Source: Eledone cirrhosa
Taxonomy: Eukaryota
Reading direction: 5' to 3'
Assembly: GCA_964016885.1 (NCBI GenBank)
Contig: OZ024740.1
Location: 744,001 to 808,000 of the forward strand
DNA: 64,000 nt
A program made the position numbers and the translations under genes. The notes under the pieces are model-generated. The model was given only the letters and a program-made list of their open reading frames with translations, did not search any database and was not told the DNA's origin. Of the stretch, positions 12,978-55,623 are shown piece after piece. Position 1 is the stretch's first letter. Every line of letters starts with the position of its first letter.

Positions 12978-13227
12978 TTTCCATGCAAACATGTTAAATA
13001 AATTGACCAAAAGGGAAATAAAACTTCATCTCCCAGTTGACAAAGAAACTCTAATCCTAAACTTGACTCTAAACATGTCAGTTCTTCACCCTGATTCGGT
13101 TGTTAGCATTGCCAATAGTTACAAAGAAGAAATGGTGGATATCAAAGATTTGAAATCTTGTTATCTCGTTGGAAATATCATCTCACATGGAGGCACAGCT
13201 ACTTTCTCATATTGTGGGGAAATACTA
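12978..13227 (+). CDS. ADAMTS exon A (prodomain)
   Basis: ttttcag|; ..SCYLVGNIISHGGTATFSYCGEIL; |gtaagt, phase 0. Confidence 0.85.
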
Positions 13228-15795: not shown

Positions 15796-15833
<38 letters not shown>

Positions 15834-16266
15834 TGTATAGTGGTAGCTATGTTGCTTCCGTAGGCGGTATGCCAAAATTAGCACTCGATATTCATCAGAG
15901 TAGAGTGTATATATTATCAAGAAAACGAAAAATCAGTGATGTATCTGGACTTAGTTTATATCGTGTTACAAATGTTTCACTGGCATGTAGCTCGAGTCAT
16001 GGTCCTTGTATGGATCTGGCTGATTCTACTTCTGCAGGTTCTTTCAGACACGTCTGTTATGTCCGGAGCAAATTTTATCACTGTGATAAAATTTGCTGAG
16101 TGATAAAATTTGCTCCGGACATAACAGACGTGTCTGAAAGAACCCGCAGAAGTAGAATCAGCCAGATCCATACAAGGACCATGACTCGAGCTACATGCCA
16201 GTGAAACATTTGTAACACGATATAAACTAAGTCCAGATACATCACTGATTTTTCGTTTTCTTGATA

Positions 16267-16307
<41 letters not shown>

Positions 16308-18549
16308 TGAAGGCCCATGGCTTAGTGGGGGGTTGCAATTGAAAGCAGTATAATAATGGAAATGATATATATTCACATTGCCCCAGTTTACTCAGCAGCA
16401 AAAATGAGATGATAGGACTGGGGTCCCTATCATTCCACTGCAAAGTGGTCGTGGAGGTGCCACGGCAAAAAAGCCCCCAGCACTCACTGTAAATGAGGTT
16501 GGTGTTAGGAAGGGCATCCATCCAGCTGTAGAAATCAAGCCAGAATCAGTTCCCGTATGAGCAAGACAAGGTCAGCCGACTGGACACTGCCCACAACAGG
16601 ACAACCCATCTAACCCATGCTAGCATGGAAGAACGGACGTAAAACGGTGATGATGATGATGATGATAATGATACACACATATCAATATGGGATAATTGAC
16701 TGTTTAGCATGTATGTATATGTGTGTGTATATATCTATATATAACTATATATATGTATGTGTATATTATATTATGTGATCAATCCTAGCTTAATAAATAT
16801 TTCCATCATAGACTTCAGGCCAAACAGTTTTACTAAAGACAATCTTTAAATCAAACCCCAATATTTTATCACAAAGTATTTCCCCTCACCCCTACTCTCC
16901 TAATTCTACTACACCCCCGACCAGCTCCACCACTACTTCCTAGCTTAATCATCGATTAATTTGACAAAACAACAGTTATGAAAATTTTTTAATAAAACAG
17001 TATTTCAAATCTTTTGATACCAAACCTCCTGGAATAACACCTGGTTCTGCGATACTAAGCTCTTTATATTATCTAAAAACCTTCCATCATAACTTTCTGT
17101 AAAAACCTGAAGTTAAACTCCAAACACAAGCTTAATAATGAGCAAGTTATCTATATAACACACATGGGCATGCCTACAAAATCAGAAAACAGCACAGTTC
17201 CCATGATTTTCAGAAACATTTTTTCACGCTCAGAGTTGCTGAAGCATGGAACAAACTACCTGCATCAGTTGTTAGCTGTCGAGACACTGCATCCTTTAAA
17301 ACCTCCATGCTTCCTGAGATTCACCAACACTACACCTAATGTTCCCCCTCCATACACATAAACACATGTATATCATGACTCATACACTATTCACTTCCCT
17401 GACATTTGTATATTATTCTATGTACTATACATGCACCTTTGACGAGTTGTAGTGCACCTGAGCAGCACTTTACACAATAATTTCATTATTATTATTTTAT
17501 TACTAAATCCTTCCAAATTCTTGATTATTTTCAAAATTACCTGAAAGTAACAGGCAATGTCTTTCATTAGAAATAATGAAAAGATTAAATGAATCTGTTC
17601 TAGATCCCAATATTAGAGAAATTTACAAGAAAAGAAGATTAAATCTATTGAGAAATTTGACAATAGAAATTGCCGTTTATGTAGACTCTGTTTTAACCAA
17701 CTCTCTGGAAGCAGTTCATAATTTGAAATCTATGCAACAGAAAATAGATTTTGTCGTCATTAAATACAACGCAGTAAGTATTTCTATTAAATTGGTTTGT
17801 GTAAGTATATTACCTTGTTTTTATTGAACAAAAGTTATACAATAATGGAAATATTAAAAATGATAAAAACAAAATTAAGTAATGAAAAAAAGGGTGAAGG
17901 GATAAAGAAGAGCAGATCTGGCTGTATAGGAAAATGAAGGAAAGGACTATAAATGCCATAAATGAGAAGAAAAGGAGGGAAAAAGCAAGGACTATTGTTG
18001 TGGGCAAAAAGCCCTGAATACCCCCGCGTAACTAAAAGTGGACTAGGCAAAACTATAAATAAGAACTGAAGTGAATTGTCATGGTTGTGTATACAGAGCC
18101 TCATTGTAGTCTCTCGTTGATAGTTTGGAATTACACCTGTTGAATACCTTGGGTGTTACCCTCGTTTAATACCGATATACTAAACAGGTGTGTCACACCA
18201 TCATAACAACTATTAGGCAACATGTAAAAGAGAGGGAAGGGAGAGGGTGACAGACTTTACACCCAGTTTGAGGCGGTGTTTCAACCGCACCCCGCAGACA
18301 AAATTACAAAGGTATTTCTGGGGACAATGGCCAGCAGCACCCACTGAAACAGCCAAGCCCATATCAAGGGGCTCGTCCCTCAGACAGGCTGCTGACTTCC
18401 GATTTTATAGGGGAGCTTAGCTGTACGGGGTCTGAGGATGCCTAAAGTCTTGATGGTGACCGGTGCAAAGAGGAAGCAGCCAGACATGCCCTGGTATTTG
18501 CTTGTCTTCCTGTCCTCATGTGTATATGTTTGTGCGTGTGTTTGTGCAT

Positions 18550-18586
<37 letters not shown>

Positions 18587-21500
18587 TAACCCATGCAAAA
18601 GTGAAAAAAAATGGACGTTAAATAATGATGATAATGATGATGATGATATAAATTATTTTTAGAAAATAAGCAAAAATAAATCCAATGTGATGGCCCATTG
18701 GTTAGGGTGTGAGATTCACAATCATAAGGTGATGGGTTTGATTTCTGGACCAGGTGATCTTCTTGAACAAGACACTTCATTTCACATTGTTTCAGTTCAC
18801 TCAGCTAAGAAAATAAAAATAGTACAAGCTGCTGCTGGGAGTTAACCCTTATGATGGACTAGTATCCTATCCAGGGTTAAGTCTTGTATCCTCAATTACT
18901 TAACACCAATAAAGCTGGGATAAACTTAAAGCTCTCAGCTTGAGAAAGACTTTATATTTTTTTGATTTGATTTTCATTTTGTTTTTGCTTATATTCTTTC
19001 TGTGTTATTTCTGTTCTTTCAATTATTGTTCTATGCTGCTACTACTGCTGCTGTTGTATGAAGGTCCAATATGAATATTGGAGGGAGAGGCTTACTGATC
19101 TCCATATCACCATTCAACTTAAGAAGATACTCTTCTTCATTGAAGATCCAGTGAGTAACATAAGCTCTATTAACAATAAGTTGATCAGAATAATAAAAAT
19201 AACATTATTACTATTGGCCCCTATATGCAGACCCTTGTGGCCAATAAAGAAAGAATTATTATTATTATTATTATTTCCATTATTATTTTTATTGCCCATC
19301 ATTACCAAGCACAGCTCTGTGTGCCTTGGATATGAACAGTATAGACTTTGCTGATGTTGTTTCTCTTGTATTGATAGTACTTTTCGTAATATGTGTGCAG
19401 TGCCTAGTAGTGCTATCTTTTGTATGCTGTGTATCATCATCATCATCATCATCATCGTTTAACGTCCATGTTCCATGCTTGCATGGGTTTGGACGGGAGT
19501 TTTCCCACTTGAGGCAAGAGTGGTTGTCTTGCTCACATAGGACTGTCTGGCGGGTTTTCCACAGCTGGATGCCCTTCCTAACACCAACCACATTTACAGT
19601 GTGGGGCTGGGAGGTTTTTACCGTGTTGCCTACACGGCCACATTACAGCGTGGACTGTATGTTTTTTTGTCGTGACACCTACACGATCTCATTTGTTTCG
19701 GCCTGGATGTTGTGGCACCAACATAACTTTACATTGAAAGGGGCGGTGTGGATGGGGTGGGGGTGGTGGGACGGGGGGTGTTTTGTTAGAGATGCCTACT
19801 GACTGTAGTAGGTTTACTTTGTATTTAGGCAAGGCGAGTCTTCTCTATTACTGAGTACCGCCAAAGATCTCGGTCCAGTGACATTGTCTTGGAGAGGTGT
19901 AAGCGTGTGAGGTCGGAATTTATCAGGTCGTCCCAGGTTTTTCTGGGTCTGCCTACTCCGTGGCTACCGTCTATCTTTATTGCCCTGCACCTTTTTATAC
20001 AGCTGTCGTTTTTCATGCTCATCACGTGACCATACCAACGTAGCCTTCTCTCGACTAAACAACATCTGATCCCTCTTATTTCTAATTTTTCCCTTAGTTC
20101 ATTGTATATATATATGTAAGTCTTGGGGTACTCTATATAATATATAGAGTAGTGCATAATATAGTAGTGCATCATTGGGGCACTAGGAAAAGTCTCTAGA
20201 TATCTTACATAAAAAGCCTTGAGATTCCCGACTTCATAGGCAGTGCCCAATCCTATGAGATATATTGAGACTCTGAGATGAGGGACTGATCTGAGGCCAA
20301 GTAACACGTTGCACCTAGAGAAACCTTACATTGTCATTATTGTTTGAGGAATAACACACATTGAGTCATGTTCCAGGAGAGCCCCACATGTTTGAGGAAT
20401 AACACACACTGAGTCATGTACCAGGAGAGCCCCACATGTTTGAGGAATAACACACACTGAGTCATGTACCAGGAGAGTCCCACATGTTTGAGGAATAACA
20501 CACACTGAGTCATGTACCAGGAGAGTCCCACATGCTTGAAGAATAACACACACCGAGTCATGTACCAGGAGAGCCCCACATGTTTGAAGAATAACACACA
20601 CCGAGTCATGTACCAACTTAGGAGAGTCCCACATGTTTGAGGAATAACACACATCAAGTCGAGTACCAACTTTGGAGAGTCCCACATATTAAAGAGTCAT
20701 GTACTAGCTTTGGAGAGTCCCACATGTTAAAGAGTCATGTACTAGCTTTGGAGAGTCCCACATGTTTGAGGAATAGCATGCATCGAGTTAAGAACCCGGT
20801 TTGGAGAGTCCCACATGTTTGAGGAATAAGTTAAGGTACAATTATAAAAACTACCTATTTCAGCATCTTTTTAAAATTATTTTTTTTGCCTTTTTCTCTT
20901 TATTCTTTCATCTTTTTAGATGGAACACTCCAAAGAAAATAATTTAGACTCAATCTTAGAATCTTTTTGTTCCTGGCAGCGATTCAGTATTCCTCAATAT
21001 GATCACGTGATGCTCTTATCAATGTAAATATAGTTTTAACTTCAGATAAGCTTTATTTTCAATTGTATAAATAACATTACAAAAGAGGAGGAAGTAAAGA
21101 AGGACAGATCTGGCTGTGTGGGAAAGTAGAGGAAAGGACTATAAATGCCATAAATGAGAGGAAAGGGAGGGGGAAAGGTAAAGGGTGATAGGCTCTGGGT
21201 CTAGGGCACAGTATTGTTGGAGTTGTGCCCCATGGACAAAACTGCAAAAGTATTTCCACGGACAGTGGCCAGCGACACTTGCTGCAACAGCCCCACCCCA
21301 CACCACCTTGCGGGTCTACTGATGTTCCAATCTTGCGGAGGAGCTCGGCAGGGTCCGGGGACTATAATAAGTTCCTTTCCTAACACACATACATATGCAC
21401 ATACATACATATACCCACACATACATACATACACACATGCACATACACACATGCACATACACACATTGGGTTTGAAGTTAATATATAAATCATCATCAAG

Positions 21501-24500
21501 ATCATAATTTAACATCCACTTTCCCTGCAAGAGTTAGACATATCATCCCAGACCAAATCAGGAGTGTAGCAGGGCTACTGACCACCCAGACAGACCAGGG
21601 GTCTACATCTCAATTATGACTAAATCAACCCACAGCAGTATATGAGATCAGAAGCTAAACACAGCACTTCATATATGCCAATAATGTTTAAAAACATTGT
21701 CATATTTGGGGAGGATCATGTTGTTCTAATATTGCCAGAAAAATATAGTAAAACACACTCACTGTTTGGTTTGGTTTTCACTTCAGTATATTTTTATATT
21801 TCTAAAAATAATTTAGCTGGCTAGCAATGTTTATCATTGATTGACCAACAGGTAAAAATATAAATATAAATATACTTTCTCAGAGTTTTTTTGTCACACA
21901 TATCTGTGACATCATCAGTGATTATCATGTTTCTATGTTCCCCCCGTTGTGTTTAAAAGCATTTCTGCTAAATCGTTCATAGCATTGTCATTGTTCTATA
22001 TTAAATACAAAAATGTTAATATGATACAGAAAACCATCAATAAAACCCGGAGGGCGAGCATACAGACCAGGAGTTTGCAGGTCATCGTTGCACTGTGCTG
22101 TCAATAATGAAGCAATGTGGGGGTTTTGGTACCTAGAAGCACATGAATTAGGACACAAGTAAGTACTGATGATGTTTATCTATGTCTCAATTAATATATT
22201 TATATGGTCATACACACACACACATATATATATATATATCAACATCCTCATCATTAGTATGGAAAATGGATGCTAAATGATGACTTATCATCATCATCAT
22301 CATCATCATCGTTTAACGTCCATCTTCCACGCTTGCATGGGTTTGGACCGGAGGTTTCCCACTTGAGGCAAGATTTGTTGTCCTGCTCGCATAGGACTGT
22401 CTGGCGGGTTTTCTACGGCTGGATGCCCTTCCTAACACCAACCACATTTACAGTGTGGAACTGGGAGGTTTTTACCGTGTTACCTACATGGCCACATTAC
22501 AGTGTGGACTGTGTTTTTTTGTCATGACACCTACACGACCTCATTTGTTTCGGACTGGATGTTGTGGTACCAACATAACTTCACATTTAAGGGGGTGGTG
22601 TGGATGGGGTGGGGTGGTGGGACGGGGGTGTATTTTGTTAGAGGTGCCTACTGACTGTAGGTTTCGCTTTGTACTTAGGCAAGGCATGTCTTCTGTATGA
22701 CTGTGTAGTGCCAAAGATCTCGGTCCAGTGACATTGTCTTGGAGTAAGTGTGTGAGGTCGGATTTATTAGGTCGTCCCAGGTTTTTCTGGGTCTGCCTAC
22801 TCCATGGCTACCGTCTATTTTTATCGCCCTGCACTTTTTTATACAGCTGTCGTCTTTCATGCGCATCACGTGACCATACCAACGTAGTTTTCTCTCGAGT
22901 AAACAACATCTGATCCCTCTTATTCCTAATTTCTCCTTTAGTTCGTTTATGCTTTGCCGTTCACGTATATTACTATTACACATCCAGCGGAGCATGCAAG
23001 CTTCGTTCTTCTCCAGTCTGCGTATATCCTCTGCACACAATGCCCCGGTCTCACTGCCTTGCAACATTGCTGTTCGTATGCAGGCATCATACAGCCTGTC
23101 TTTCATTTTTAGAGAGAACCCTTTAGCGGCTAATAGTGGTATAAGCTCTCTAAACTTTTTCCATCCCGTTCTGACTCTAGCTACTCTACTCTCAGAACCC
23201 CCCCCCCCTCCCCACTGCTGATTTTGTCACCCAGGTAATGGAAGGTGTCCACTATTTCTATAGAACCATATATATATATTTCCAGATCTGCCGCCTTTGT
23301 AGCCGAGATGCGGACATCGGGACGCAAGCCCTTTCTCTGGTCCATCATTTCACCTGGAGGGGTTACCCAGCTCCCTCGTCCACGCCGCCCTCGCCCACCT
23401 GTTTCACTCCCCCCTCTCCTACCACCCCACCACCCTACTCCTCCAACAAACCATCCTCGCCTCTTCCGACGCCTCCAGTCTGATCCTTCCACCTCCCTCG
23501 TCTTCCCGCTAGCACCCACCCTCCTTCAAACGCACACACAACCTCCACAACCTCCTCTTCTGCAGCTCCCTACACCCCAACCGCCATTTCTCCCCGGTTC
23601 CCTTCCCTGCTCCAGACCCCGCTGCCACACATGCCCCCAGATTACCAACACCACCACCTTCCAGGGACCCAACGGCCACACTCTCTCTCTGTCCGGCATT
23701 CCTCTCACTGCACCTCCTCCAGCCTTTTTATGGCCTCTGCTGCACGGAGTATGGCGCAACCTATTTAGGATAGACCAGACGCCATCTGGCCGACTTAGGG
23801 CTGAACAACGCACCATCTTCCTATTACAGACTTGCACCACCACCCCTCTTCCTTTAGCCTTCGACTGACCCTCTACCTGTCCCCTACCCCTACTAGCACC
23901 ACTAACCTCTACCCACACACACCTCACCACCCCACTACTAATACTATCAAATACTGCCCCACCTTCCTTCCTCCCCACAACACACACGCACTCACACCCC
24001 AAACACACACACACACCAGTATATATACACTCACATGTATGTACACATGTATCTTCCCCTCTCCTGTCCCCTCTCCCTCTACTAGCACCACTAACCTCTA
24101 CCCACACACCTACCTCTCATCACCCTTTCCGTCAACATTACTACTGTTCACCACAACACGCACACACCTTACCTTCCGCCATCCCCGCTCAGACTCCAAT
24201 TTTCTTGCTTCCCTCTCCTTCCCACTTCATGCACCCCTTACACATTCCCCAACCCTTTCCTCCCGGACCCATACACCGCTCCCACCCCTCTTCACTCTCA
24301 TTTTCTTTAAATTCTGTTTTTTTTATATATTCCGTTTCATTCTGTTTCTATTTATTTTGATTTCATGTTTTGTTTTTATTTCTATTTTTCCCGTCCTTTC
24401 ATGCTTTTCCTGCTAACTCCCCCACCCCACTCCCTCTCAGAGTTCCCCCCTACTCTCCTGATGAAGGACTTATGTCCGAAACGTCGTAACCCTCCCCCCC

Positions 24501-24578
24501 ATTCTCACGAAGCATGATGCTAATAACACCATGTACCATTGACTTCTGCATTTGTTTGTTATTTTGAACTATATATAT

Positions 24579-24611
<33 letters not shown>

Positions 24612-26405
24612 GTTTAACGTCCATCTTCCACGCTTGCATGGGTTTGGACGGGAGTTTTCCCACTTGAGGCAAGATTGGTTGTCTTGCTCGCATAGGACTG
24701 TCTGGCGGGTTTTCTACGGCTGGATGCCCTTCCTAACACCAACCACGTTTACAGTGTGGACTGGGAGGTTTTTACTGTGTTACCTACACGGCCACATTAC
24801 AGCGTGGACTGTGTGTTTTTTTGTCGTGACACCTACACGTCTGGCGGGTTTTCTACGGCTGGATGCCCTTCCCAACACCAACCAAAATACATTGGTTACC
24901 TAGGTGACAACCTCAGTAGTTAGGGAGGTCTCACAGTAATCAGAGTGAGATCAGGTTGGAGAAAATTCAGGGAGCTACTACCGTTACTAACTACAAAAGG
25001 TTTTTCTCTCAAAATGAAAGGCAGACTGTATGATACATGTATACGAACAACAATGTTGCATGGCAGCGAGACCTGATCACTGTGTGAAGATTGGAAAGGA
25101 ATGAAGTCTCCATGCTTCGCTGGATATGCAATAGCAATATACCTGAATGGCAAAGTATAAATGTACTGCGTAAAATATTAGGCTTAAGAAGGATCAGTTG
25201 TTGTATGCAGGAGAGGAGATTGTGTTGGTATGAAGGATGACAGCTGTATATTAAGGTGCAAAACGCTCAAAATCGATGTAAACCGTGGTGTGGGTAGGCC
25301 TAGGAAGACTTGGGATGAGGTAATAAAAGCTGACCTTGCACAATTACACCTCTCAAAGGCAATGACTCAGGACCGCAACCTCTGGCGCTATGCAGTTTTA
25401 TGAAAGACCCGCCCTCTATTGTTCTCAGGATGAGGCTTATACCTAGCAGGCCACACCTTCCTCAACCTGCTATCCCTTCATTCACCTCCCTTAGCGGTAA
25501 CCATACTTCCCCTACCACCCTGTCCATATTTTCCTCAAGCTTCCTGCTCCCTCCCTAGTACCAAGACAAAAGGGCCCAGGCCCCACTGTAATGTGGCCGT
25601 GTAGGTGACACGACAAAAAGCACCGAGCACACACTGTAAATGTGGTTGGCAGTAGGAAAGGTACCCAGCTGTAGAAACCAAGCCAAAATCTGCCCCAGGT
25701 GAGCTAAACAAGGGTCAATCCGTCCAACCCATGAATGATGGACGTTATTCAACGAGGTTGATGATATATTTATGTGTGTATATATATGAAGTGTGTATGT
25801 ATATGTATGATATGTGTATGTATATTACATATATGGTATATGTATATGCATGCAAATATATATATATGTGTATATCAGTATCATGATATGTTCATGTATG
25901 TATATGTATATATATGTATATTATACTGGTACCACAAAACATCCAGCCCACACTGTAGAGTGGTCATGTAGGTGTCACGACAAAAAGCACCCAGTCCACA
26001 CTGTCAATGTGGTTGGTGTTAGGAAGGGCATCCATAGAAAACCAGTCAGAAACTCTCCTATAAGAGTGAGACATGGTCACCCAAACCAACTTGCCTCTAA
26101 ATGGGACAAACCCGTCTAACCCATGCTAGCGTGGAAGATAGACGTTAATCGATGATGCTGACGATGATAAACAAGAGTATTAATGAAAAAATTTAACTTC
26201 TTTTATGGAAGAAAGAAGTTGAATGTTTCCATTAAAACTTTTATATTTGCTCTGCCTTCATAACCACTCTCCCACACTAATACATAAATGCATTGAACAA
26301 TTCCTTTTTTTTAAACTGGCAACTACATACTATCATTTTAATTCTCTACTTTCCTTTGAGAATTGTTTGTATACTTCTACCTTTGATATATATATATGAT
26401 GTGTG

Positions 26406-26454
<49 letters not shown>

Positions 26455-29400
26455 CATATTTGTCATACTTTTCATGTTTTTGGCAGGGTTTTTCTGGCTG
26501 GAAGCTCTTCCTATCACCAACCACTCTACACTATGGACTGGGTGCATTATTCATGCCACCAGCATTAGAGAGATTGTCTTACTAGACTCTTCTTCTTCTT
26601 CTTCTTCTTTTTCTTCTTTTTCTTCTTCTTCTTCTTCTTCTTCTTCTTCTTCTTCTTCTTCTTCTTCTTCTTCTTCTTCTTCTTCTTCTTCTTCTTCTTC
26701 TTCTTCTTCTTCTTCTTCCTGAAAAGGTCTGGCAACCAAACTCATAGATGTTATCCAACCATCTTGCTCATGGTCTACCCCTTGCTGTAAAATCTGTCCA
26801 GTGATTCTTTCCTGAGACATTCTTTGATCTCTCAATTCCAAGAAGTAGAGGCTCTACCTGGAATAACTCTCTCATCTCCAAGCTGCACTCTATTCATCAT
26901 CATCATCATCATCATCATCATTTAACGTCCATTTTCCACGCTAGCATGGGTTAGACGAGAGTTGTCCCACTTGAGGCAAGATTGTCTCGCTCATATAGGA
27001 CTATCTGGCAGGTTTTCTACGGCTGGATGCCCTTCTAACACCAACCACATTTACAGCGTGGACCTGGGAACTTTTTACCGTGTTACCTACACGGCCACAT
27101 GACAGCGTGGACTGTGTGTTTTTTCTCGTGACACCTACACGATCTCGATCTCATTATCTCATTTATTTGGACTGGATGTTGTGGTACCTACTTTATAGAG
27201 AAAGGGTGGTGTTGGTGGGAGTGGGAGGATAGGGTAGGGGTAGTGGATTGGGGTGTATATTTGGTTAAGAGGTGCCTACTGACTGTAGGTTTCGCTTTGT
27301 ACTTAGGCAGGGTGGGTCTTCTGTATTACTGCGTAGCGCCAAAGATCTCGGTCCAGTGACATTGTCTTAGAGAGGTGCAAGTATGTAAGGTCGGAATTTA
27401 TCAGATTGTCCCAGGTTTTTCTGGGTCTAGCTACTCCCTCCAAAGACCCTTCAGAGGAAAGCCATTTCAGATGCTTTTGTTCTCAATCATATTATTTCGG
27501 TAATTACCCAAGATTCATGACCATAGGTAAGGGTTGGCCTGAATACCAAATTGAAGATAACAAGTTTGTATGCTGTATATATTTGTAAGTCTTGGAATTT
27601 TGGTTATGTATTTGTCCGTGTTTTTATCATTCCTAGAGCACCTATTATTGTAGGTATTGTTTCTGTCTTCATCATCTCTAGATCTTTATATTTAGATAGT
27701 TTCTCCATTTCCTTGGTAGATATATTGTCATCTGTGTGGTTATTTGTCTTTGATCTCCTCATCCGTGTGTATGGGCATATCCCTATCCACTGCTCTATTA
27801 TAATTGCTGATATTGTGTCAAAAGTAGAAACAATTATTATTACTAGCTGGACCCGTGAAAAAATTCACAGATAATCCTTCTCTCTATATTATAACCCCCT
27901 CTCTCTAAATATATCAAAACCCATCCCTTTCTCTATATATTAAAACCACCCTCTCTATATATTATAACACCACCCTCTCTATATATATATTTAACCTCCT
28001 CTCTCTATATATATTTTAACCCTCCTTTCTCTATATTATAACCCCCTCTCTCTATATTATAACCCCTCTCTTTAAATATAGTATAACCCTCTCTCTCTAT
28101 ATGTATTATAACCCCCTCTCTCTATATATATATATAATAACCCATCCCTCTCTCTATATATATTATAACCCCCTCTCTCTAAATATATTATAACCCCCTC
28201 TCTCTATATATATTATAAGCCCCTCTCTCTCTATATATATAATAACCCACCCTCTCTCTCTAAATATATTATAACCCCCTCTCTCTCTCCTTTCCAAACG
28301 TTGCAGCGCTCTTTGATCTTCTTTCACCGTAGATTTTCGTAGATTGTTTACCACCCCCTTTCATTGTTTTAGCATGTCTCACTGACGTCATTCGACTTTT
28401 ATTTATATTACTGAAAGTGTGAGACACACGGTCGGACATACGGTACGTAGGTATTAGAGTATTAATATATAGATTATTATCCTTATTATTATTGTTGTTG
28501 TTGTCATTGTTGTCGTTGTTTTGTCCTAAAACTGTTATTAAATGGAATAGAAAAGCTTACCTGGTTGTCCTTCCCTACCCAATCTCCACCAGTCTAGGAA
28601 TGGCTCACAGCGATGAAACAATAAAATGTACATCAAGGCCAGAAAGTGATGGAGTTATGGGAACTCAGAGGACTGGATGGAGTAGTTGTTCCAGAGAATC
28701 TCTACTGTCATTGATAAAGTAAGTCTACACTACCACATGGCAATACCACACCACATGAGTAAGTCTACACTACCACATGGCAATGTCACACCACATGAGT
28801 AAGTCTACACTACCACATGGCAATGTCACACCACATGAGTAAGTCTACACTACCACATGGCAATACCACACCACATGAGTAAGTCTACACTACCACATGG
28901 CAATACCACACCACATGAGTAAGTCTACACTACCACATGGCAATGTCACACCACATGAGTAAGTCTACACTACCACATGGCAATGTCACACCACATAAGT
29001 AAGTCTACACTACCACATGGCAATACCACACCACCACCACTGCCCCCCACCACCACCATCCACCACTGTTTTCTCTTCACAGTAACCACCACTGCCCCCC
29101 CCCCCCCCCCCCTACCACCGCCACCACCCACCACTGTGTTCTCTTCACAGTAACCACCACTGCCCCCCCCCCCCCCCCCCCCCGCCACCACCCACCACTA
29201 CCACCGCCACCACCCACCACTGTGTTCTCTTCACAGTAACCACCACTGCCCCCCCCCCCCACCACCACCACCGCCACCACCCACCACTGTGTTCTCTTCA
29301 CAGTAACCACCACTGCCCCCCCCCCACCACCACCACCGCCACCACCCACCACTGTGTTCTCTTCACAGTAACCACCACTGCCCCCCCCCCCCCCCCCCCC

Positions 29401-32400
29401 CACCACCACCACCACCGCCACCACCCACCACTACCACCGCCACCACCCACCACTGTGTTCTCTTCACAGTAACCACCACTGCCCCCCCCCCCCCCACCAC
29501 CACCACCACCGCCACCACCCACCACTACCACCGCCACCACCCACCACTGTGTTCTCTTCACAGTAACCACCAAGCTGAATGTCTGTTTCAAGAGAACGTC
29601 AAACCAGAATATGTGGAAGACAACAATAGAAATATTACAGCAAATGGTCTTTTACCAGGTCAGTACACTCCTTCTTCTCCTCCTCCTCATCACCGCCACC
29701 ACCACCTCACCACCACCACTACCACAACCACCATCATCAGCACTACCACCACCACCACCACCACCACTACCACCCCCACACCACCACGCCACCACCACCA
29801 CCACCACCACTGCCACCACAACCACCACCACTACCACCACCACCACCACAATCACCACCACCACTACTACCACCACCACCAGCACAACCACCACCACCAC
29901 TACCACCACCACAACCACCGCCACTACCACCACCACAACCACCACCACTACCACCACTACCACCACTACCACCACCACTATCATCATCATTATCATCATC
30001 TCTTTTATGTTCATCTTACATTCCATGTTTTCATGTTCTGAACTAGACATGACAGAAGATCATGTGTTGCTCATAATCTTCCATCTTGGCAAGGTCTTTA
30101 TGGCTGGATGCCCTTCTATTGCCAATTATTTAACAGACTCTACTGGGTGCATTTAATCATGACATTAGTGCTTCATAGAGTGTACTGGGTACATTTTAAT
30201 GTGACATCAGCACTGCTACTTCATAGCTTGTAATGGGTTCATCTTATCATGGCACCAGAATTACTACTTTACAGAGTGTACTAGGTGCATTTTAACATAG
30301 CACCAGCACTAAAGAGTAGATTGGGTACATTTTATCATACCACCAATACAACCACTTTACAGAGTGTACTCGGTGCATTTTATCATGACACCAACACAAC
30401 CACTTTACAGAGTGTACTGGGTGCATTTTAACGTAGCACCAACAGAGTGTACTATAATTATTATCTCTTTTTAAGTTAACTACTACTACTACTACCACCA
30501 CATACACCACACTACTACTACTACTATCATCATCTACACCACACTACTACTACTACTATCATCATTACACCACCACACTACTGCTACTACTACTAGTTTT
30601 AAATTGCCAAAGTCTGCTGTATATTACTACGGCACCCCTACAACTCTATCATCCCTGAAGAGGGACGTGCCCTGCCAGATTTAAGGATCAGAGACATGCT
30701 GTATATTACTATGCCCCCTCCCCCTACAATTCCAGCATGATTTAAAGACCCATGCATGTACTATGACACAATTTAAATGCAAGAGAATTAATCTATTTTT
30801 TGCACTTTTGGATTTTATATCGAATGATAATAATATACAAGCAAACAGCCTCATTACGCTATATTTTATAGATGACCATCACTATCCTTTTGTTCTAGCA
30901 GTGGCAGAAAGAAACAATCCTGTCATCACTAGAACAAAAGGACGGTGATGGTCATCTATAAAACATAGTGTAATGAGGCTGTTTGCTTGCAAATGAATCA
31001 AATATTATTATTCAATATAAAACTCCTGAATGCATTTATGTATCCTCTATGTTAGAACGAAAAACGAAATTCTAATTTTTTATTTTTTTATGTATTCTAA
31101 TCTTCCTTAATCCCCTAGGTCTCTACCTTACACCAGATGATACATGTGAGTTAAATTATGGACCAGGTTTCCGATATAGGCCATATCCAGGAGAAACCCC
31201 TCATGTAAATATTTTATACCATCTTCTGTAAAACTGACCAAGAAGGCTGAGTCAGCAAGGCCAATATTTCACTAGTGCTGTGTTTTATACATTGTCAAAA
31301 TAATACAGCTACTAGTGCTGTGTTTTATACATTGTCAAAATAATACAGCTACTAGTGCTGTGTTTTATACATTGTCAAAATAATACAGCTACTAGTGCTG
31401 TGTTTTATACATTGTCAAAATAATACAGCTACTAGTGCTGTGTTTTATACATTGTCAAAATAATACAGCTACTAGTGCTGTGTTTTATACATTGTAAAAT
31501 ACTAAGCCCTCAGTGATCCAGATCACATTTATTTATTTATTTATTTATTCATTTAATCAGTTTTAACGTCTGTATAAGCCACGACAGACTAGGGGAAGTA
31601 TTGAGTATTTGTTACAGTTGTTAATCAAAAAGAACTAATGAGACAAGTAATAAAAATAAATATTTCAAATATTGAAGGCCAATGGGAGGCAGATTATGCC
31701 TAAGAAAAAGAAAGAAAATAGTAAAGAAAGGAAGCTGTAAAACAGAAGTTTCTCTTGTTGAATCTTTTCATAGCTACCATGTACTCCAAGTTTCTCTTGT
31801 TGAATCTTTTCATAGCTACCATGTACTCCAAGTTTCTCTTGTTGAATCTTTTCATAGCTACCATGTACTCCAAGTTTCTCTTGTTGAATCTTTTCATAGC
31901 TACCATGTACTCCAAGTTTCTCTTGTTGAATCTTTTCATAGCCACCATGTACTCAAAGTTTTTGTTTATATTTGGTAGATCTTTAATCATGTATTGAACT
32001 TCCAATGTTGGTAATTTTTTAAAGATATTATTAAACCATTTTTTTTAACAACCAAACACTTATCACATAAAAGAATTTTTATAATCAAAACAATCACTGA
32101 AAGAATACAATCACAAATACAATCAGCCGAGTCTTTGGAGTATAATTTATTTACTAATTAGCAATTAAACCATTAATTAACTTACTAATCAACAATGAAT
32201 AATTCATTTAATAATTACCAGTTTAATTAACTAACAATGTTGTTTCAGACGGAATGTAAGTTCCATTCCTGTACATATTTGGTCCATAATGAAAGATTTG
32301 GTGAGATGAAGGTGAATCGTCATGGGATAGCTGGTGCTTATTGTGGTCAGAACATGGTAAGTTGATCTAAACACACAATTGTGGTCAGAACATGGTAAGT

Positions 32401-34618
32401 TCATCTAAACACACAATTGTGGTCAGAACATGGTAAGTTCATCTAAACACACAATTGTGGTCAGAACATGGTCAGTTCATCTAAACACACAATTGTGGTC
32501 AGAACATGGTAAGTTCATCTAAACACACAATTGTGGTCAGAACATGGTCAGTTCATCTAAACATACACTTGTGGTCAGAACATGGTAAGTTCATCTAAAC
32601 ACACAATTGTGGTCAGAACATGGTCAGTTCATCTAAACACACAATTGTGGTCAGAACATGGTAGGTTCATCTAAACATACAATTGTGGGCAGAACATGGT
32701 AAGTTCATCTAAACACACAATTGTGGTCAGAACATGGTAGGTTCATCTAAACATACAATTGTGGGCAGAACATGGTAAGTTCATCTAAACACACAATTGT
32801 GGTCAGAACATGGTAAGTTCATCTAAACACACAATTGTGGTCAGAACATGGTAGGTTCATCTAAACATACAATTGTGGGCAGAACATGGTAAGTTCATCT
32901 AAACACACAATTGTGGTCAGAACATGGTAGGTTCATCTAAACACACAATTGTGGTCAGAACATGGTAAGTTCATCTAAACACACATACATATTTAACCAT
33001 TTAGCATTTATATGTAGAGAGAGACTAGGCATAAGAGGAATCAAATGTTGTGTGCAGGAGAGGAGATTATGTTGGTATGAAGGATGACAGCTGCATAAAA
33101 AGATGCAGAGCACTAAAAGTCAATGGAAATCTTGGAGTGGGGAGACCCAAGAAGACCTGGGATGAGGTGATAAAAGCTGACCTTACTCAATTGCACCTCT
33201 CAAAGGCGATGACACAGGACCGTGACCTCTGGTGTGACGCAGTAATACAGAAGACCCAACTTCCCACGGGTACAAACCGAAGCTGAAGCATATAGACAAT
33301 ATGCTCCCACCCCTCCCACTGTAAAGTGGTCGTGTAGGTATAACAACAAAAACACACCCAGTCCACACTGTAAAATGGTCGTGTAGGTGCCACGGTAAAA
33401 AAGCACTCAGTGCTCACTGTAACTGAGGTTGGTGTTAGGAAGGGCATCCAGCTGTAGAAATCAAGCTAAAATCAGCTCTGTATCAGCAAGACAAGGTACC
33501 CTGACCTGGCATTGCCCACAACAGGACAACCCACCTAACCCAAGCTAGCGTGGAAGAACGGATGTAAAATGGTGATGATGAAACCAAGCCAAAATCAGTT
33601 CTGTATGAGCAAGACTTGATCACCTGACCTGACATTGTTCACAATAGGATAACTCGTCTAACCCATGCAAGCATGGAAAAATGTACATTAAATGGTGATG
33701 ATGATGATTATGATTACTCTATATTAACTATTGTATTTTCATGATAAACACTTTATTTCATATAATTATCTCACATACAACATTATCTCGCCAACAACAA
33801 CTCTGAGCACCTTTTTGATCTCCATGTGTCTAACACATGTGGACATGTCTACAAAATCAGAAAACAGCACAGCTCCCATGACTTTCGTAAACATTTTTTC
33901 ACGCTCAGAGTTGCTGAAGCATGGAACAAACTGCCTGCGTCAGTTGTTAGCTGCCAAGACACTGCATCCTTTAAAACCCTCATGCTTCCCGAAATATGCC
34001 AAAACTACACCTGATGTATCCCTTCCATACACATGCACACATGTGTATATCATGACTCATGCACTGTTCATTTTCCTGACATTTGTACATTACCCTATGT
34101 ACTATACATACACTTTTTGATGAGTTGTAGTGCACCTGAGCACTGTACACAATATTTCATTATTATTATTATTATTATTATTATAATATCGAATCTACGA
34201 GATTTTGATATTTATTTTGAGAACAATACCTTAACATAAGTATGAGCACCCAGTTTGAACAGAAAGAGATGAAATAATCCTGACCAGATATGGCCGATTT
34301 AAATGCTAAAAGATTAAGCTCAAATGTCTGGCAACTGACTTCGTAGACACCCACAAGATTATTAACCATCTTGCCAACACCCATGGACATGCTTGTAAAA
34401 TCAGAAAATAGTACATTTCCCATGACTTTCGGAAACATTTTTTCATGTTCAGAGTTGCTGAAGCATGGAACAAATTATCTGCATCAATTCTTAGCTGTTG
34501 GGACACTGCATCTTTCAAAACCGCCATGCTTCCTGAAATTCACATACCTACCTACCCAGGTGTAAAACTGTCCTATAACTTGGAGCATACATATATACAG
34601 TGATTTTTACCTATTACT

Positions 34619-34653
<35 letters not shown>

Positions 34654-37181
34654 TTTACGTCCGCTTTTCCCTGCTTGCAAGGGTGGGACGGGTCTTATTC
34701 AGCACAGCATCTCTCCACTCTTCACGGTCCCTCGTCATCTCCACCGTGAGCTTCAATGATCTGAGGTCTGTTCTCACCACCTCCGCCCATGTTTTTCGTG
34801 GTCTACCTCTACCACGTCTTCCTTCAACTGCCAATTCCTGGCACTTCTTCACCCATCGGTCATCCTCCATGCGCATCACATGTCCATACCACCTCAGTCT
34901 CCTCTCCCGTACACTACATTCTATCCCTCTCAGACACAGTTTCTCTCTCAACACATTTATGCTGGGTCGTTCACGCACATTTACACTGCACATCCAACGG
35001 AGCATGCTTGCCTCATTTCTCTCCAGCCGTCGCATATCCTCTGCAGTTGCTGCCCATGTCTCACTACCATGCAGCATCGCGCTCCTCACACAGGCATCAT
35101 ACAACCGGCCTTTCATACGCAGGGAGAAACCCTTCTTCATCAACAGAGGAAGCAGCTCCCTAAACTTCTTCCAGCCCGTCCTTATTCTAGATACTATGGC
35201 CTCGGAACACCCTCCTCCCATGCTAATCTGATCTCCTAGGTACCGGAAGCTATCCATCACTTCTATAGCGCCCTCTTGCATTTGAAAAATGTGTCTATCA
35301 GTGCGACTTCTACTGTCTAATTTCCCTGTACATCTACTGCATACATATTTCTCCCTACCTGTTAGTTTGCCTGCTATCCTGCTACATCTCTTGTGTACTA
35401 TATATTGTTTATTTTTTTCCCACTTTCAGGTTTGTGTACTAAACCTACAATGTGTCAATATCAAGACCCTAAATTTAAGGGTACCTATAACTGTAACAGC
35501 TGGTGGCTGGGGATTGTGGGGTGCATGGTCTGAATGTATTTCTGTTTGTGGACCTGGGATCAGATACCGTGAACGATTATGTACAAACCCAAAGTAAGTT
35601 TTCACATGGATTTCACTGACACTGTTATTGTTTAACCCCAGCTTTGATGTAATCTAGCACACATATGGTCCAGGGCCTCCTTGAGGTGTTCATCCTGTTT
35701 ATTTTCCCCCTTTCAGACTCCACCATCTCGTGTATAAGGTTTGGTATGTTGGTATGTTGGTAGTCAGTGTTAAAGTAATTGTGAAAACTAGTGTATAAGG
35801 TTTACTATGTTGGTATGTCAGTGTTAACATAATTGTAGAGTCTGGTATATAAGGTTTGGTATGTCTGTGTTTAAAATAATTGTGGAGACTGGTGCATAAG
35901 GTTTACTATGTTGTATGTCAGTGTTAAAATAATTGTAGAGTCTAGTGTATAAGGTTTGGTATGTTGGTATGTCTGTGTTAAAATAATTGTAGAGTCTGGT
36001 GTATAAGGTTTGGTATGTTGTATGTCAGTGTTAAAATAATTGTAGAGTCTGGTGTATAAGGATAACTATGTTGGTATGTCTGTGTTAAAATAATTGTAGA
36101 GACTGGTGTATAAGGTTTGGTATGTTGTGTCTGTGTTAAAATAATTGTAGAGACTGGTGTATAAGGTTTGGTATGTTGTGTCTGTGTTAAAATAATTGTA
36201 GAGACTGGTGTATAAGGTTTGGTATGTTGTGTCTGTGTTAAAATAATTGTAGAGACTGGTGTATAAGGTTTGGTATGTCTGTGTTAAAATAATTGTAGAG
36301 ACTGGTGTATAAGGTTTGGTATGTTGAGTCTGTGTTAAAATAATTGTGGAGACTGGTGTATAAGGTTTGGTATATTGTATCTGTGTTAAAATAATTGTGG
36401 AGACTGGTGTATAAGGTTTGGTATGGAGACATGTATATGAGGATTTTTATGTCGTGTTTGTGTTAAAAATAATTGTTGATGAAGTGAAAGACAAACATGT
36501 TTATTTGATAAATTTGAAACCTCTATTTCAGACCACTGAATAGTCCACAGTGTAAAGGACAGCAATACAGTTCTGTGGCCTGTACTGGAAAGGTAGGAAA
36601 ATGTATGACACCGTATGTGTATATTTCCTCGGTGTTGTTTTATGTCTGAGACAAGCAGTGTTAAAAAATCATCATTATTGTTGCAAGCAGGCTTGCCTCA
36701 AAGTGTTCCGTTGACTCTTATGATGTGTGACTGATTGTCACACTTAATGGTGAATTGATGGTCGTTTTTGCTTCCCCTCTTTTTTTTCTTTTTTTTTTCC
36801 TTTCTCTCACTATGTTTATGTGTTCTGGTGCGTTGTTTATATGAGCTTCTTTCCATGGCTGTATTTGTTATATGTGTTTATTTCTGTGTTTATCAACGAC
36901 ATTATATTTCTAATGTTATTCATAAAAATGTGAATAAAATTATAGAAAATAGAAAAAATTAAAAATGATTTAATTCATGCATTTCAAAAGTCTATTTTCA
37001 CTTTTACATTGGTGTGTGATGTCATAAAAGTATTTCTTTCACCATACCAAGCTGAACCTAATTATCAAGCAGGCTTTGATTCCAGTTAAAATGTGGTGGC
37101 TCGTCTCAAAAATTATAAGAGGGAAGCTCTGGTGCCACTCCTTTTTCTCTCCTTTTTTTAAGTTCTGTATACATATGTGTG

Positions 37182-37219
<38 letters not shown>

Positions 37220-40200
37220 GGTTTGAAGGTTCACCACTGGACAATTCCGTATGGTCAATCTTGATATAATAATATGGAGAGTACTCAACGTAAAGCAGCT
37301 CAACCGTCCTCATTTGTGTAGTTGGTGGTGCGAGTACGGAGTTAAATATTATAATAAAATAACAGGAGGCTGGACTTGTGTAAATCCTTGAAAGGTTTAT
37401 TATACTATGATCATTTCAATGACCGGGTTCCGTATGAATCCGGCGATATCATCAGGTATTCTAAATATAATAAATGAATGTAACAGATAAAATCCATGGG
37501 GCTGAAAATCGTAGACCGAGGATGACCGACCATCTAGCATCTTCCACTTTAGCCGGTCGCCCTCAAGTGTTGCCCATTCAGCCTACTTAAGGCTATCTGG
37601 TGAGGGGGCTAAAGCTTATAGTGTGCTACTAACCTCCCGGTCAAAGAGAAGAAAAACAGAAAGGAAGAAGAAGAAAAGTCAGCGTTAATGTCATGCTACA
37701 AGAAAAAAGACAGAAAGAAAGAGAAAGAAAAGTCAGCATTAATGCCATGCTACAGTCAGGCCAGGAATTGCCGTGAAAAAAGTTATTCTAAAGGACCCGT
37801 ATCTTAGCAGAGGTATATATAGTGGGGGTCTACATGGTATAATGGGTGAGTAGAAGATTGGAACGTTAAATTTTGTTTAGATTTATAGGATGAAGTTAAA
37901 AAAATTAAAGATTAACATTAGAAAATTAAAAAATTAGAAAATTGAAAATTAAACAGTTTAAAAAATTTTTTAAGGTTTTGGGGTGTGAGGTTTAGTTAAA
38001 GAAAGAGTCTTTTATGAAGAAACTTTAATTGTATTATAGAGATCCTCTATAAGTTATCCGAGTGGGATGTAGAGTAAAGATTATGTCCTTGTTTAGCAGT
38101 CAAACAGCATGCGGCGACTGCAGACCCCGGCCAGCCCATCCTAACCACATGTCAGCCATTCCAAGTGAGATCGCCTAGCGAAAGATATGGAAATCAATTT
38201 TTCCAAGCACTCTAGGAATGTATTCCAGGCTTCAGGTGTGCTAGTGGGAAGTCAGCCATCGTTGTTAGACCATTGTTATACCAAATGAGTACTATAAATT
38301 TACACAGGAGGGGGATTTGTTTAAGTAGAGGGAGGCATGATACAGCTAATAGTTATGATTAGGCCTAGAATTTAAAGGTACTATATGGCGGTCAAAAAAC
38401 GGCTGCGTGGCGGGCCCCAGGGCGAATCAAGCTGCTCCGAGTTATTTCATTTACCGAAGGAAGGGGAATTTGAACTATATTGTATTTCTCCTATGTTTTG
38501 ATTTCTCCGTTTTACTCCACCACCACTCTAGTTATTTTTATTTGTTTATTTATATATTTCTACCTTTTTACTTTATTCATCATCATCATCATCATCACCG
38601 TTTTACGTCCGTTCTTCCACGCTAGCATGGGTTAGACGGGTTGTCCTGTTGTGGGCAGTGTCTGGTCAGCTGACCATGCCTTGCTCATACAGGAACTGAT
38701 CTGGCTTGATTTCTACAGCTGGATGCCCTTCCTAACACCAACCTCATTTACAGTGAGTGCTGGGTGCTTTTTCGTGGCGCCTACACGTCCACTTTACAGT
38801 GTGGGCTGGGTGCTTTTTTGCCGTGGCACCTCCACGACCACCTTGCGGTGGGGGAGGGGGGCATATTGTTTATATGCTTCAGCATGTACCCATGGGAGGT
38901 CGGGTACCCTGTATTACTGCGTGACGCCAGAAGTCACGGTCGTGTGTCATTGACTTTGAGAGGTGTAGTTGGGTAAGGTCGGCTTTTATCACCTCATCCC
39001 AAGTCATCTTGGGTCTCCCCACTCCGCGGTTTCCATCAACTTCTAGTGCTCTGCACCTTTTTATGCAGCTGTCATCCTTCATACGCATCACATGTCCATA
39101 CCAGCGTAACCGCCTCTCCTGCACGCAGCATTTGATTCCTCTTATGCTCAGTCTCTCTCTCAATTCCTTTATGCTTTGTCGTTCACGTATATTACTGTTA
39201 CACATCCATCGGAGCATGCAGGCTTCGTTTCTCTCTAATCTACGTAAGTCTTCCACCTTCAGCGCCCAGGTCTCACTACCATGCAACATCGCTGTTCGGA
39301 TACACGCATCATACAGTCTGCCTTTCATTCTGAGGGAGAAGCCTTTTGCAGCTAGCAGTGGTAGTAGTTCCCTAAACTTCTTCCATCCCGTTCTTACCCT
39401 AGTTATTGTACTTTCTGAGCACCCACCTCCGTTGCTAATTCGGTCACCTAGGTAGCAGAAGCTGTCTACTGTTTCTACAGGGCCCTCCCAGAGATTGGTG
39501 GTACTTGTTTCCTGTGGCTGTTTGCTTGCTGTTTCAGCACAGCTGCTGCATGTGAATCCTACATTCTTAATTAAGCTTCCTGAAATCCCGCTACATCTCT
39601 TGTGTACCCATTGTTTGCATTTGGGGCAGAGAATGGAGTTCCTACCTACACCTTTCCTACATACTGAGCAAGGCCATTTCCCTGAGGGGATCTGGGTTCT
39701 GTTTTCTCGTCTACTTATAAGGACCTTAGTCTTTGTCATGTTGACTTTGAGGCCCTTTCTCTCTAGTCCCTGCTTCCAGGTTTGGAATTTATTCTCTAGT
39801 TCTACCATAGATTCAGCTATGAGTGCGAGGTCATCAGCATACAGGAGTTCCCATGGGCATCCGGTCTTAAACTCCTCCGTTATTGCCTGCAGGACTATGA
39901 TGAACAGGAGAGGGCTAAGAACAGAGCCCTGGTGGACCCCAACCTGTACGCTAAATTCCTCGCTATACTCATTGCCAATCCTAACTTTGCTGACTGCTCC
40001 CCTATACATGGCTTGTACCGCTTTCACAAGCCATTCATCTACTCCTAGTTTTCTAAGAGCCCACCAGATTACTGCACGTGGAACTCTGTCAAAGGCTTTC
40101 TCAAGGTCGACAAATGCCAAGTAGAGTGGCTTACTTTTAGCTAGGTACTTTTCCTGTAATTGCCTCACAAGGAAGAGGGCATCAGTGGTGCCTTTCCCTG

Positions 40201-43200
40201 GTACAAACCCAAATTGCATCTCGTCTATATTCACCCGGTCCCTAATCAGCTGTGCTATAACTCTTTCTGTTACTTTCATGACCTGGTCCATTATTAATGT
40301 GTTTTATCTACGTATTCTACTTTTATCTATCTATGTCTTTTTTATTCCTTGTACTCACTTGTACCCACAACACTAGAATATCTCCCCCTGAGAACAACAA
40401 TACCTATTACCCGGACTATCTGGGGACCTAGATATAGTCTATTTGCGCTTTTCATTGAGTTTTACAATTGATTACACACGATGATCCGACTGGTGTGGTG
40501 GTTTTCCTGGCTGTGAGACCGGCCTCCTGGTGCATGGGCCAACCTTAAGTGCTTGGAAAAATAAATTTCCCCTTCTTTCGGTATATGAAATAACTCGGAG
40601 CAGCTTGATTCGCCCTGGGGCCCGCTGCGCAGCCATTTTTTGACCGCACTATATATACCTCTGCTAAGATACGGGTCCTTTAGAATAACTTTTTTCGCGG
40701 CAATTCCTGGCCTGACTGTAGCATGGCATTAATGCTGACTTTTCTTCCTCTTTCTTTCTGTCTTTTTTCTTGTAGCATGACATTAACGCTGACTTTTCTT
40801 CTTCTTCCTGTCTGTTTTTCTTCTCTTTGACCAGAAGGTTAGTAGCACACTATAAGCTTTAGCCCCCTCACCAGATAGCCTTAAGTAGGCTGAATGGGCA
40901 ACACTTGAGGGCGACCGGCTAAAGTGGAAGATGCTAGATGGTTGGTTGTCCTCGGTCTACGATTTTCAGCCCCATGGATTTTATCTGTTACATTCATTTA
41001 TTATATTTAGAATACCTGATGATATCACCGGATTCATACGCAACCCGGTCATAGTATAATAAACCTTTCAAGGATTTACACAAGTCCAGCCTCCTGTTAT
41101 TTTATTATAATATATATATATCATCACTGCTTAACATCCATTTCTCCACGCTAGCATGGGTTAGAGTGATTGTCCCATTTGAGGCAAGTTGGGTCAGGTG
41201 ACTGTGTCTTGCTCACACAGAACTCTTTCTGGCTTGGTTTCTATGCCTAGATGCCCTTCCTAACACCAACCACATTTAAATTGTGGGCTGGGTCATGACA
41301 CCTACATTTACCACCTGGTGTGGTGTGTGTGTGTGTATGTGTGTGGGTGTATGTGTGTGCGCACATGTGTGTGTGTGTGTGTGTGCGCGCGTGTTTGTGC
41401 ATGTGTTTGTGTGTGCATGAAACAGCCAATACAAAACATAATCCATTTATAAGATACATTGCTGTCCTCTTACTGTAGCCATGTTCAATAAGACAGCCAA
41501 TACACTATATAATCCATTAATAAGATACAATAACTATAATGCTGTCCTGTTGTTGTAGCCATGTTCAAGAAGAGAGCCAATACACAATAACTATAATGCT
41601 GTCCTCTCTATTGTAGCCATGTTCTAGAAGAGAGCCAATACACAACATAATCCAGAAGTCTATTAATGATTTATGCCAACGTTTTGTGAATCTTGGAATA
41701 CTGAAAAAAGAACACTACAGTGAAGGAAGACTATTTGGTTCTGGTAGAGTTTTTCTAATGATTCTAACCGTTTTGTTAATCCAATCAGTCATAGAGGGCA
41801 GCACCAACAATGGGATGAGGAATTAAGGGGTTCTCTGTAGCAGCAACCTGGTGCAGTCTGCAACTAATCCAGGCTCTGCTGCACTTTGGGCCAAGGAACG
41901 TAAACTCTCCAAATATCAGTCGCTCTCCAACAGGTTTGTAGTCGAACCCATAGCAGTGAAGGCTTCTTGAGTCCTTGGCCCTAGGACCACCTCCCTACTC
42001 ACCACCATCAGCATGGAGTTGGCTGCCTGCAGGTTTGAGTCTTGCAAGCTGGAATGGCTCTTCCAACGTGTCTCTCTCACCATCCTCCAGGGAAATGCCT
42101 TTTCTATTCTATCTACTGGGACCGCGTGGTGGCCCGAGTGTGGCCTCCCATTTGCTTATAATAGTAAGAGATGGGGAGAGATGGAGGCAGTGACTATACC
42201 AGCATTGCTGAATTATTTTGTAGAAATCACTTAACTTTTAAGTTAAATGATTTCATTTCTACATAGCTTTCTAACTTCAATTATGTATATAATAGTTGTT
42301 GACTCTAACCCTTTGTTAATCCAACCAATCCTAGAGGGCAACACCAACCATGTTGACTATACTCCACTGTAAGAACTGTTATTGTGTTATTGTTTCACTC
42401 TGTTCAGGCCAAGTTCAAGGAGTTTATATTGATAATCATTGATATGACTATATTAATTTGTAGGTATCAGGTAAAGTTTGCCTTTCATTTTTTTGGGGCC
42501 GATAAAAACAATACTATATCTCTATCGCAAATTTTGAGTTCAACAATGTTACCACCCCTTAAGGGCTTAAGGGTGGTGGTTTGACAGAATTAGTAGAGCA
42601 TCAGGTAAAATACTATTGTGGTATTTGTTCTGGCTCTTTACATTCTGAGTTCAAATCCTGTGAAGGTCAACTTTGCCTTTCCTCCTTCTGAGGTTAATAA
42701 AATGAAGTATCAGTCAAATACTTTGGTTGATTTAAGCAATTTTGCCCTTTCCCCGAATTTGCTGACCTTGTGCCATGATTAGAAATCAATATAAACAGGG
42801 TGTCCCAAAAAAACCTGTTGAAGTGTGTATGCATTTTTTGGAACATCTTGTATATTCTATATATTTTTATTTAACGATCAGATAAATTAACCGCATGTGA
42901 AGTAATTTGTCATTCCAACCCAAGATTGAAAACTGACCGATTGAATAGATATGGTTTACTTCCTGATGGAACTCCGTGTGAACTTCCTGGGTCTTACCTT
43001 GATCCAATGAGATGGAAAAAGAAGGCAATTTGTATCAATGGGGCCTGTGAAGTAAGTTTGTAGAACATTTAATATTTTCTTTGAGATTTGCTGAGTAAAA
43101 TTGTGAAGTTGTGTGGCCCAGTGTGTAGGTCTTATCTCATGATTGTAAGGTCATGTGTCGGATCTCCATACTGGGTCGTACTTTGTATCCTTGAGCAAGG

Positions 43201-55472: not shown

Positions 55473-55623
55473 TCTGTTAGAACACGAAAAGTGTGAAACA
55501 ACAGAATGTTCACTTTTCGTGTTCTAATATATATGCCTAACATCTTCATAAATTTTTCGGGGATAGCCGTGGTGGTGGTGATCGTATGTCATTGGCTAAT
55601 TTTCAACCAATCAGAGTAAGTGT

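Follow-up and report, generated by a model that had tools for sequence, protein, structure and literature searches.

An intron of an ADAMTS-like metalloprotease gene in the cephalopod Eledone cirrhosa consists of two abutting minisatellites, one built from copies of its donor boundary and the other from copies of its acceptor boundary. The intron occupies 845 nucleotides (nt) at 28719-29563 on the plus strand of the window, by which we mean the whole 64,000-nt stretch analysed here (contig OZ024740.1 of assembly GCA_964016885.1, positions 744,001 to 808,000), and the two arrays tile all 845 nt, leaving neither a spacer nor unique sequence. We consider it probable that the arrays stem from two independent tandem duplications, that the intron is spliced in one step at its outermost sites, and that the arrays have no function of their own.

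A motif scan places GTAAGT at 28719 + 40k (k = 0 to 7), giving eight donor copies (D1 to D8), and finds seven copies of the acceptor motif (A1 to A7) with ends at 29082, 29150, 29236, 29303, 29368, 29469 and 29563. Tandem Repeats Finder (TRF) reports a donor array of period 40 with 7.9 copies and 96% match, and an acceptor array with several overlapping periods of 67-94. Scan and TRF together confirm an original prediction, made before any searches, that eight tandem donors in a 40-bp GTAAGT unit abut seven C-rich acceptor units. Both arrays are far above chance expectation, and a search of the plus strand found no further copies of the donor or acceptor unit elsewhere in the window.

The donor unit starts at the exon boundary, with a few exon bases at most. 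Donor units fall into two types, arranged ABBAABBA, a pattern suggestive of the doubling of a four-unit block; unit order likewise suggests a recent change in copy number. Position -2 is G in donor units 2-7 and A in the true donor and unit 8. Each acceptor unit combines a poly-C run of 6-21 with CAC repeats, a pyrimidine tract and CAG, and also includes the 9 nt that open the following exon. These units vary in a poly-C run of 10-21 and in a 22-nt inner duplication, with unit 1 the most diverged, and A2-A6 share with the true acceptor at least the last 30 intron nt plus the first 9 exon nt. Both ends of the acceptor unit carry a 7-nt direct repeat, ACCACCA, which occurs within the intron and again where the exon begins; a unit so bounded is what a short-homology duplication would leave. 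Every array copy retains its GT or AG.

Two structural features lead us to class the intron provisionally as a splice-boundary minisatellite. The units run head to tail and, at 40 and 65-101 nt, lie within the ~10-160 nt of that class, and the edge units (D1, A7) carry the boundary that matches homologs, the other copies being intronic and keeping GT or AG.

The model of the host gene has the propeptide, reprolysin, TSP1 and cysteine-rich parts of an ADAMTS-like metalloprotease. Its exons measure 61-250 nt and its other 14 introns 938-6595 nt, which makes the focal intron the shortest. A one-exon protein search returned one match among 56 candidates, an Octopus sinensis ADAMTS7-like protein (P0001) whose cluster also includes members from O. 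bimaculoides and O. vulgaris; a search with exon 7 gave nothing at E <= 1. In P0001, the Pfam families TSP_1 and ADAMTS_CR_3 score above cut-off and Reprolysin and the propeptide slightly below, and TSP_1 scores above cut-off on one window exon. In the gene model, the HExxHxxGxxH zinc pattern is complete across exons 6-7. Compared with an Octopus vulgaris protein (P0003), the model shows 67% identity over 660 columns, with similar identity in the exons flanking the intron and no gap at the outer join. The gapless join and the 687 codons without a stop agree with the prediction that the outermost pair gives the normal frame. Because the exon join is gapless against homologs, the intron position is not newly gained. 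No transcript-derived protein across the junction was found in the protein searches, and a partial Argonauta protein (P0004) stops just past the junction and is uninformative on it. P0001 lacks the exon at 22030-22158, where the zinc site's first half is encoded, and P0003 and P0004 have it; its absence from P0001 is likely an annotation gap.

The eight donors and seven acceptors allow 56 pairings, and 54 of these stop. The remaining two are the outermost D1-A7, which is normal, and D1 with the acceptor at 29368 (A5), which stays open with 65 added residues. All 49 pairings that use an inner donor stop one codon past the exon, in the AAG-TAA originally predicted, because a phase-2 GTAAGT that is read through yields TAA; this outcome is automatic and does not imply design. 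With D1, the six inner acceptors give five stops and one open frame, again as foreseen. However, 0.91 open inner acceptors are expected by chance given random unit lengths (the probability of at least one is 0.50), and the D1-29368 frame hinges on two poly-C lengths, staying open in 2/9 combinations of +-1 poly-C errors. Transcripts with such inner-site stops would presumably enter nonsense-mediated decay.

The Reprolysin match of P0001 reaches residue 373, and the junction lies near residue 364. The inner-donor stop would thus cost ~9 residues of the domain, including a cysteine kept in Octopus proteins. The earlier claim of a stop right after the catalytic core therefore holds for the stop and fails for its position inside the Reprolysin match, and the catalytic-domain-only isoform also proposed would lack the end of its domain.

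We propose that a short-homology slip or a template switch could have copied each boundary, and that unequal exchange might then have altered copy number. Boundary copies would survive because one true boundary always adjoins the exon. All donors precede all acceptors, an order forced by geometry once each boundary is copied into its own intron, and a pseudo-exon inside the intron therefore cannot be defined. The complete mini-intron between D8 and A1 may be a candidate for the ancestral intron or the product of a deletion between the arrays, two origins that the data do not separate. During splicing, the first donor would win by position, as in human F7, and by giving the shortest exon (126 nt, versus 166-406 for inner donors). 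The last acceptor would win by pairing across the 95-nt exon 8 with that exon's strong donor; inner acceptors would give exons of 189-576 nt. Wrong products, with early stops and at least eight downstream junctions, would be degraded.

Recursive (ratchet-point) splicing requires an AG directly followed by GT, which regenerates a donor. The intron contains 22 AG and no AGGT, and its acceptors are followed by TA. Although the intron shares with recursively spliced introns the presence of several splice signals, it lacks AG-GT and is the shortest in its gene, and the recursive splicing originally suggested is not borne out. More generally, the functional readings of the original prediction find no support in this analysis.

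Arrays at splice boundaries form a published class in which the authentic site is mostly used (PMC1557585, PMC3087553, PMC3902484). Human F7 intron 7 holds 5-9 copies of a 37-nt donor unit, the first of which alone is used, and in LMNB2 and PDGF the first donor alone is likewise used (PMC1557585). The present donor array resembles the F7 variable number tandem repeat in its ~40-nt unit, in its first copy being the true donor, in its few exon bases and in its inner copies being potential donors. In contrast, F7 has one acceptor and here seven compete, and a first-come rule cannot explain use of the last acceptor. The amphioxus mirages, found at either boundary in genes such as Adh3, troponin C, the globins BflGb6 and BflGb9, and PGBD5, are reported to leave splicing undisturbed (PMC3087553, PMC3902484). 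Like the arrays described here, mirages are tandem copies of exon-intron boundaries at 5' or 3' ends, with units of tens of nt, diverged edge units and several arrays per gene. Unlike them, the Eledone intron is arrayed at both ends, with the arrays touching and no unique intron sequence, and its host is a cephalopod; length polymorphism and normal splicing were shown for the mirages, and for the Eledone intron both are putative.

Two further systems are related in part. Nested intrasplicing (10.1101/159350) also involves donor/acceptor pairs inside an annotated intron that are removable first, but those are unrelated cryptic sites identified from RNA, whereas the present ones are exact copies of the outer sites identified in DNA. 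Intron gain by tandem duplication (PMC3265369) similarly duplicates signals that the spliceosome can recognize, although no new intron position arises here. Within limited literature coverage, we found no published case of arrays at both ends of one intron or of boundary arrays in cephalopods. The unusual part is the touching, double-ended form; the class itself is already known. Such an intron is a natural experiment, in that eight near-identical donors and seven near-identical acceptors separate position from sequence at both ends. In the published work examined, less attention has gone to the acceptor side, where the winning copy has to be the one transcribed last. The arrays also carry a warning for annotation, as they can produce spurious exons or disrupted gene models where cephalopod genes are rich in repeats.

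Minisatellites of period >=30 within the gene span (n=17) were compared with 20000 placements, a simple null applied to one gene. Splice sites are spanned by 4/17 (the two focal arrays, the exon 10 donor array and the exon 13 acceptor repeat), versus 0.71 expected (p 0.005). With the focal arrays removed, the median distance to a splice site is 287 nt versus 733 nt at random (p 0.027). A stricter 16-mer scan found copies at 3/32 boundaries and missed the diverged exon 13 array. With 2-4 of ~30 boundaries arrayed, 7-21% of 15-intron genes would be expected to contain an intron with arrays at both ends. This expectation, like the further arrays at exons 10 and 13, favours the reading of functionless repeats.

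Several observations weigh against one-step removal of functionless arrays. Predicted U1 pairing, based on the U1 motif, is equal for D1, D2 and D8 (-5.6 kcal/mol), and position must therefore decide, as in F7. In local folding, A7 is predicted to be the least accessible of the seven acceptors, and accessibility peaks at D8 among the donors and at A1 among the acceptors; this modelled accessibility appears to keep inner-first splicing a live option. In human 6-16 and CBS, two inner donors are used as well (PMC1557585). The open frame indicates that the gene is kept and is not proof of present splicing accuracy, and with donor units 96% alike the arrays may be young. No RNA run covering the locus is among the 23 runs listed. 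Finally, when the focal arrays are removed from the minisatellite count, 2/15 span a boundary (p 0.11).

An alternative that we regard as unlikely is removal from the inside out, in which inner pairs, the 84-nt D8-A1 first, would often be spliced first, D1 and A7 would remain, and the shortened intron would be re-spliced correctly, the arrays partly buffering each other. The geometry allows this: 42 inner-inner pairs, spanning 84-711 nt, have their donor before their acceptor within the intron and far enough apart to be spliced, and the outer sites stay intact after 42/56 pairings, with a shortest remainder of 134 nt. The open folding of D8 and A1 points the same way, and intrasplicing has been reported in human introns of 500-5000 nt (10.1101/159350). 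In a toy model without site preference, the correct product amounts to 1.8% in one step and 26% with unlimited re-splicing; one array by itself would give 1 in 8 or 1 in 7. However, 26% is still low, and a preference for the outer sites is thus needed regardless. Strict peeling fails, as eight donors against seven acceptors leave 40 nt and a stop. In addition, re-splicing close to a newly formed junction is reported to be suppressed by the exon junction complex (PMC8184009), the lengths of the other introns (938-6595 nt) would suggest exon definition and not short-intron definition, and the inner lariats or intermediates are predictions from sequence. A self-buffering 'nesting-doll' intron, which would start from its 84-nt core and pass through several inside-out rounds, the number of repeats determining how much correct mRNA is made, is similarly doubtful. 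If inner-first splicing were true, the intron would show cleanly that a short intron can be removed in several steps; if the nesting-doll form were true, it would be a natural test bed for intron versus exon definition with identical sites.

It is also rather improbable that the arrays act as a leaky decoy, with inner sites diverting a real share of transcripts into stop-containing forms and copy number tuning the amount of protease between alleles. The stops in 54/56 pairings, the inner donors used in human 6-16 and CBS, and the identity of A2-A6 with the true acceptor across the splice site are consistent with such a role, and human tandem repeats tied to splicing variation have been catalogued (PMC10078293). 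However, the stop past a phase-2 GTAAGT donor is automatic, and F7 alleles of 5-9 copies splice from the first donor only (PMC1557585).

We consider it very unlikely that the arrays are an assembly artefact, with copy numbers inflated or unique sequence between the arrays lost. Among 23 sequencing runs listed, none contained at least half of the locus words; in three runs of one sample, possibly the assembly source, the share was 0.44, 0.20 and 0.11. Contigs were compared in four runs, and those of this sample (X1, X2, X7) behave as genomic DNA, with contigs that cross the upstream intron, exon 7 and the first donor without difference; run X3 (0.11 of words) yielded simple repeats only. None of the four had contigs over exon 8, a gap of no evidential value, and the 19 remaining runs, each with a small share of the words, are given no weight. 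Single-copy contigs have depths of 3.9 and 4.0, and a 70-nt donor-unit contig in a sister run has a depth of 16.8, matching the 3.9 copies that the assembly predicts, with contig depth taken as a rough guide. Two contigs that cross an acceptor into poly-C have depths of 12.9 and 15.1 and three differences from unit 1, as expected of inner units. These data support the presence of both arrays in multiple copies in short-read contigs of one sample. Exact contigs over exon 7 into D1 and over the D7-D8 variant, together with the patterned differences between units, also argue against an artefact. On the other side, no contig bridging the two arrays is among those listed, the contig comparison, with 29151-29548 left out, covered little of the acceptor array, poly-C tracts as long as those seen here (up to 21) are prone to error, and the intron minus its arrays would be 84 nt, versus at least 938 nt for the gene's other introns. 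A joint at 29067-29112 (side 21 nt) was discarded as a repeat artefact.

A selected alternative isoform, either with a 65-residue linker via acceptor 29368 or as a short protease-only form via an inner donor, is most improbable: D1-A5 is open in the assembly, but one open inner acceptor equals the chance expectation and survives few small poly-C errors, the stop form lacks the end of the Pfam domain, and P0001 and P0003 have no insert at the junction.

Table 1. Coordinates of the focal intron, its arrays, the host gene and related arrays within the window.
Feature	Position	Strand	Description
Donor minisatellite	28719..29034	+	8 x 40 nt; every unit opens with GTAAGT
Outermost donor D1	28719..28724	+	Likely authentic 5' splice site; sole frame-keeping donor; join to 29563 gapless versus P0003
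Innermost pair D8-A1	28999..29082	+	Complete 84-nt mini-intron
Acceptor minisatellite	29035..29572	+	7 acceptors; units 65-101 nt
Inner acceptor A5	29367..29368	+	+65 Pro/Thr/His-rich residues; alone among inner sites in giving an open frame with D1
Outermost acceptor A7	29562..29563	+	Likely authentic 3' splice site
Exon 7 (G in the original prediction)	28593..28718	+	126 nt, with a phase-2 end; carries the Met-turn and the zinc site's second half; tblastn 63% to P0001; exact 254-nt genomic contig
Exon 8 (H in the original prediction)	29564..29658	+	95 nt; end of protease domain; the donor after it is predicted to pair strongly with U1
Host gene, partial model	12978..54157	+	16 exons; GT-AG ends; 687 codons without stop; first and last exons not found
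Second donor minisatellite	32340..32985	+	17 x 38 nt; unit joins the donor to 17 nt of exon 10; 10 GTAAGT, 4 GTAGGT, 3 GTCAGT
Older acceptor duplication, exon 13	41445..41645	+	3 diverged boundary copies, near 41478, 41558 and the true site 41616

Hairpins over the donors are not significant in 4/4 folds (z -0.13 to 1.17). At the true acceptor (29546-29564) and at one inner copy, the pyrimidine tract and AG are predicted to be closed over by a 6-bp hairpin (z -2.0 and -2.7), whose stem is broken in unit 1 and which does not separate inner from outer sites. Selection on the G at -2 of donors 2-7 was set aside as an explanation: the 1.9 kcal/mol that it adds to the opening energy is matched by 2/104 substitutions, the test was post hoc, and the base may derive from the unit's inner repeat. 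No inverted repeats pairing the two arrays were found in 28500-29800 (0 pairs). The minus strand at 29030-29570 is G-rich, with poly-G runs of up to 21 and three matches to the G-quadruplex pattern; G-rich DNA of the G-quadruplex type could drive instability of an array.

In the exon 10 array at 32340-32985, donor position +3 or +4 is changed in 7/16 inner copies, and an in-frame TGA occurs just past the donor only in the first copy. Minisatellites that lie 8-270 nt from an exon and do not span its boundary are located at 14044-14304, 20341-20766, 31271-31501, 35749-36425 and 53920-54062. About 97 CAC units (29691-29978) begin 33 nt past exon 8, placing CAC-rich DNA on both sides of that exon.

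Elsewhere in the window, a reverse-transcriptase-like frame is present in two opposed copies, 260-1000 (minus strand) and 946-2277 (plus strand), within 1-2600. A stretch of ~200 nt occurs twice in opposite orientation at 15800-16320, giving the same translation on both strands. At 37647-40824, a long reverse-transcriptase-like frame (38879-40303, minus strand) lies between inverted 54-nt x 2 repeats at 37647 and 40717. A 16-nt AT-rich satellite is present at 55092-55473 (24 copies) and 61233-64000 (at least 173 copies), and a similar motif occurs just past exon 16.

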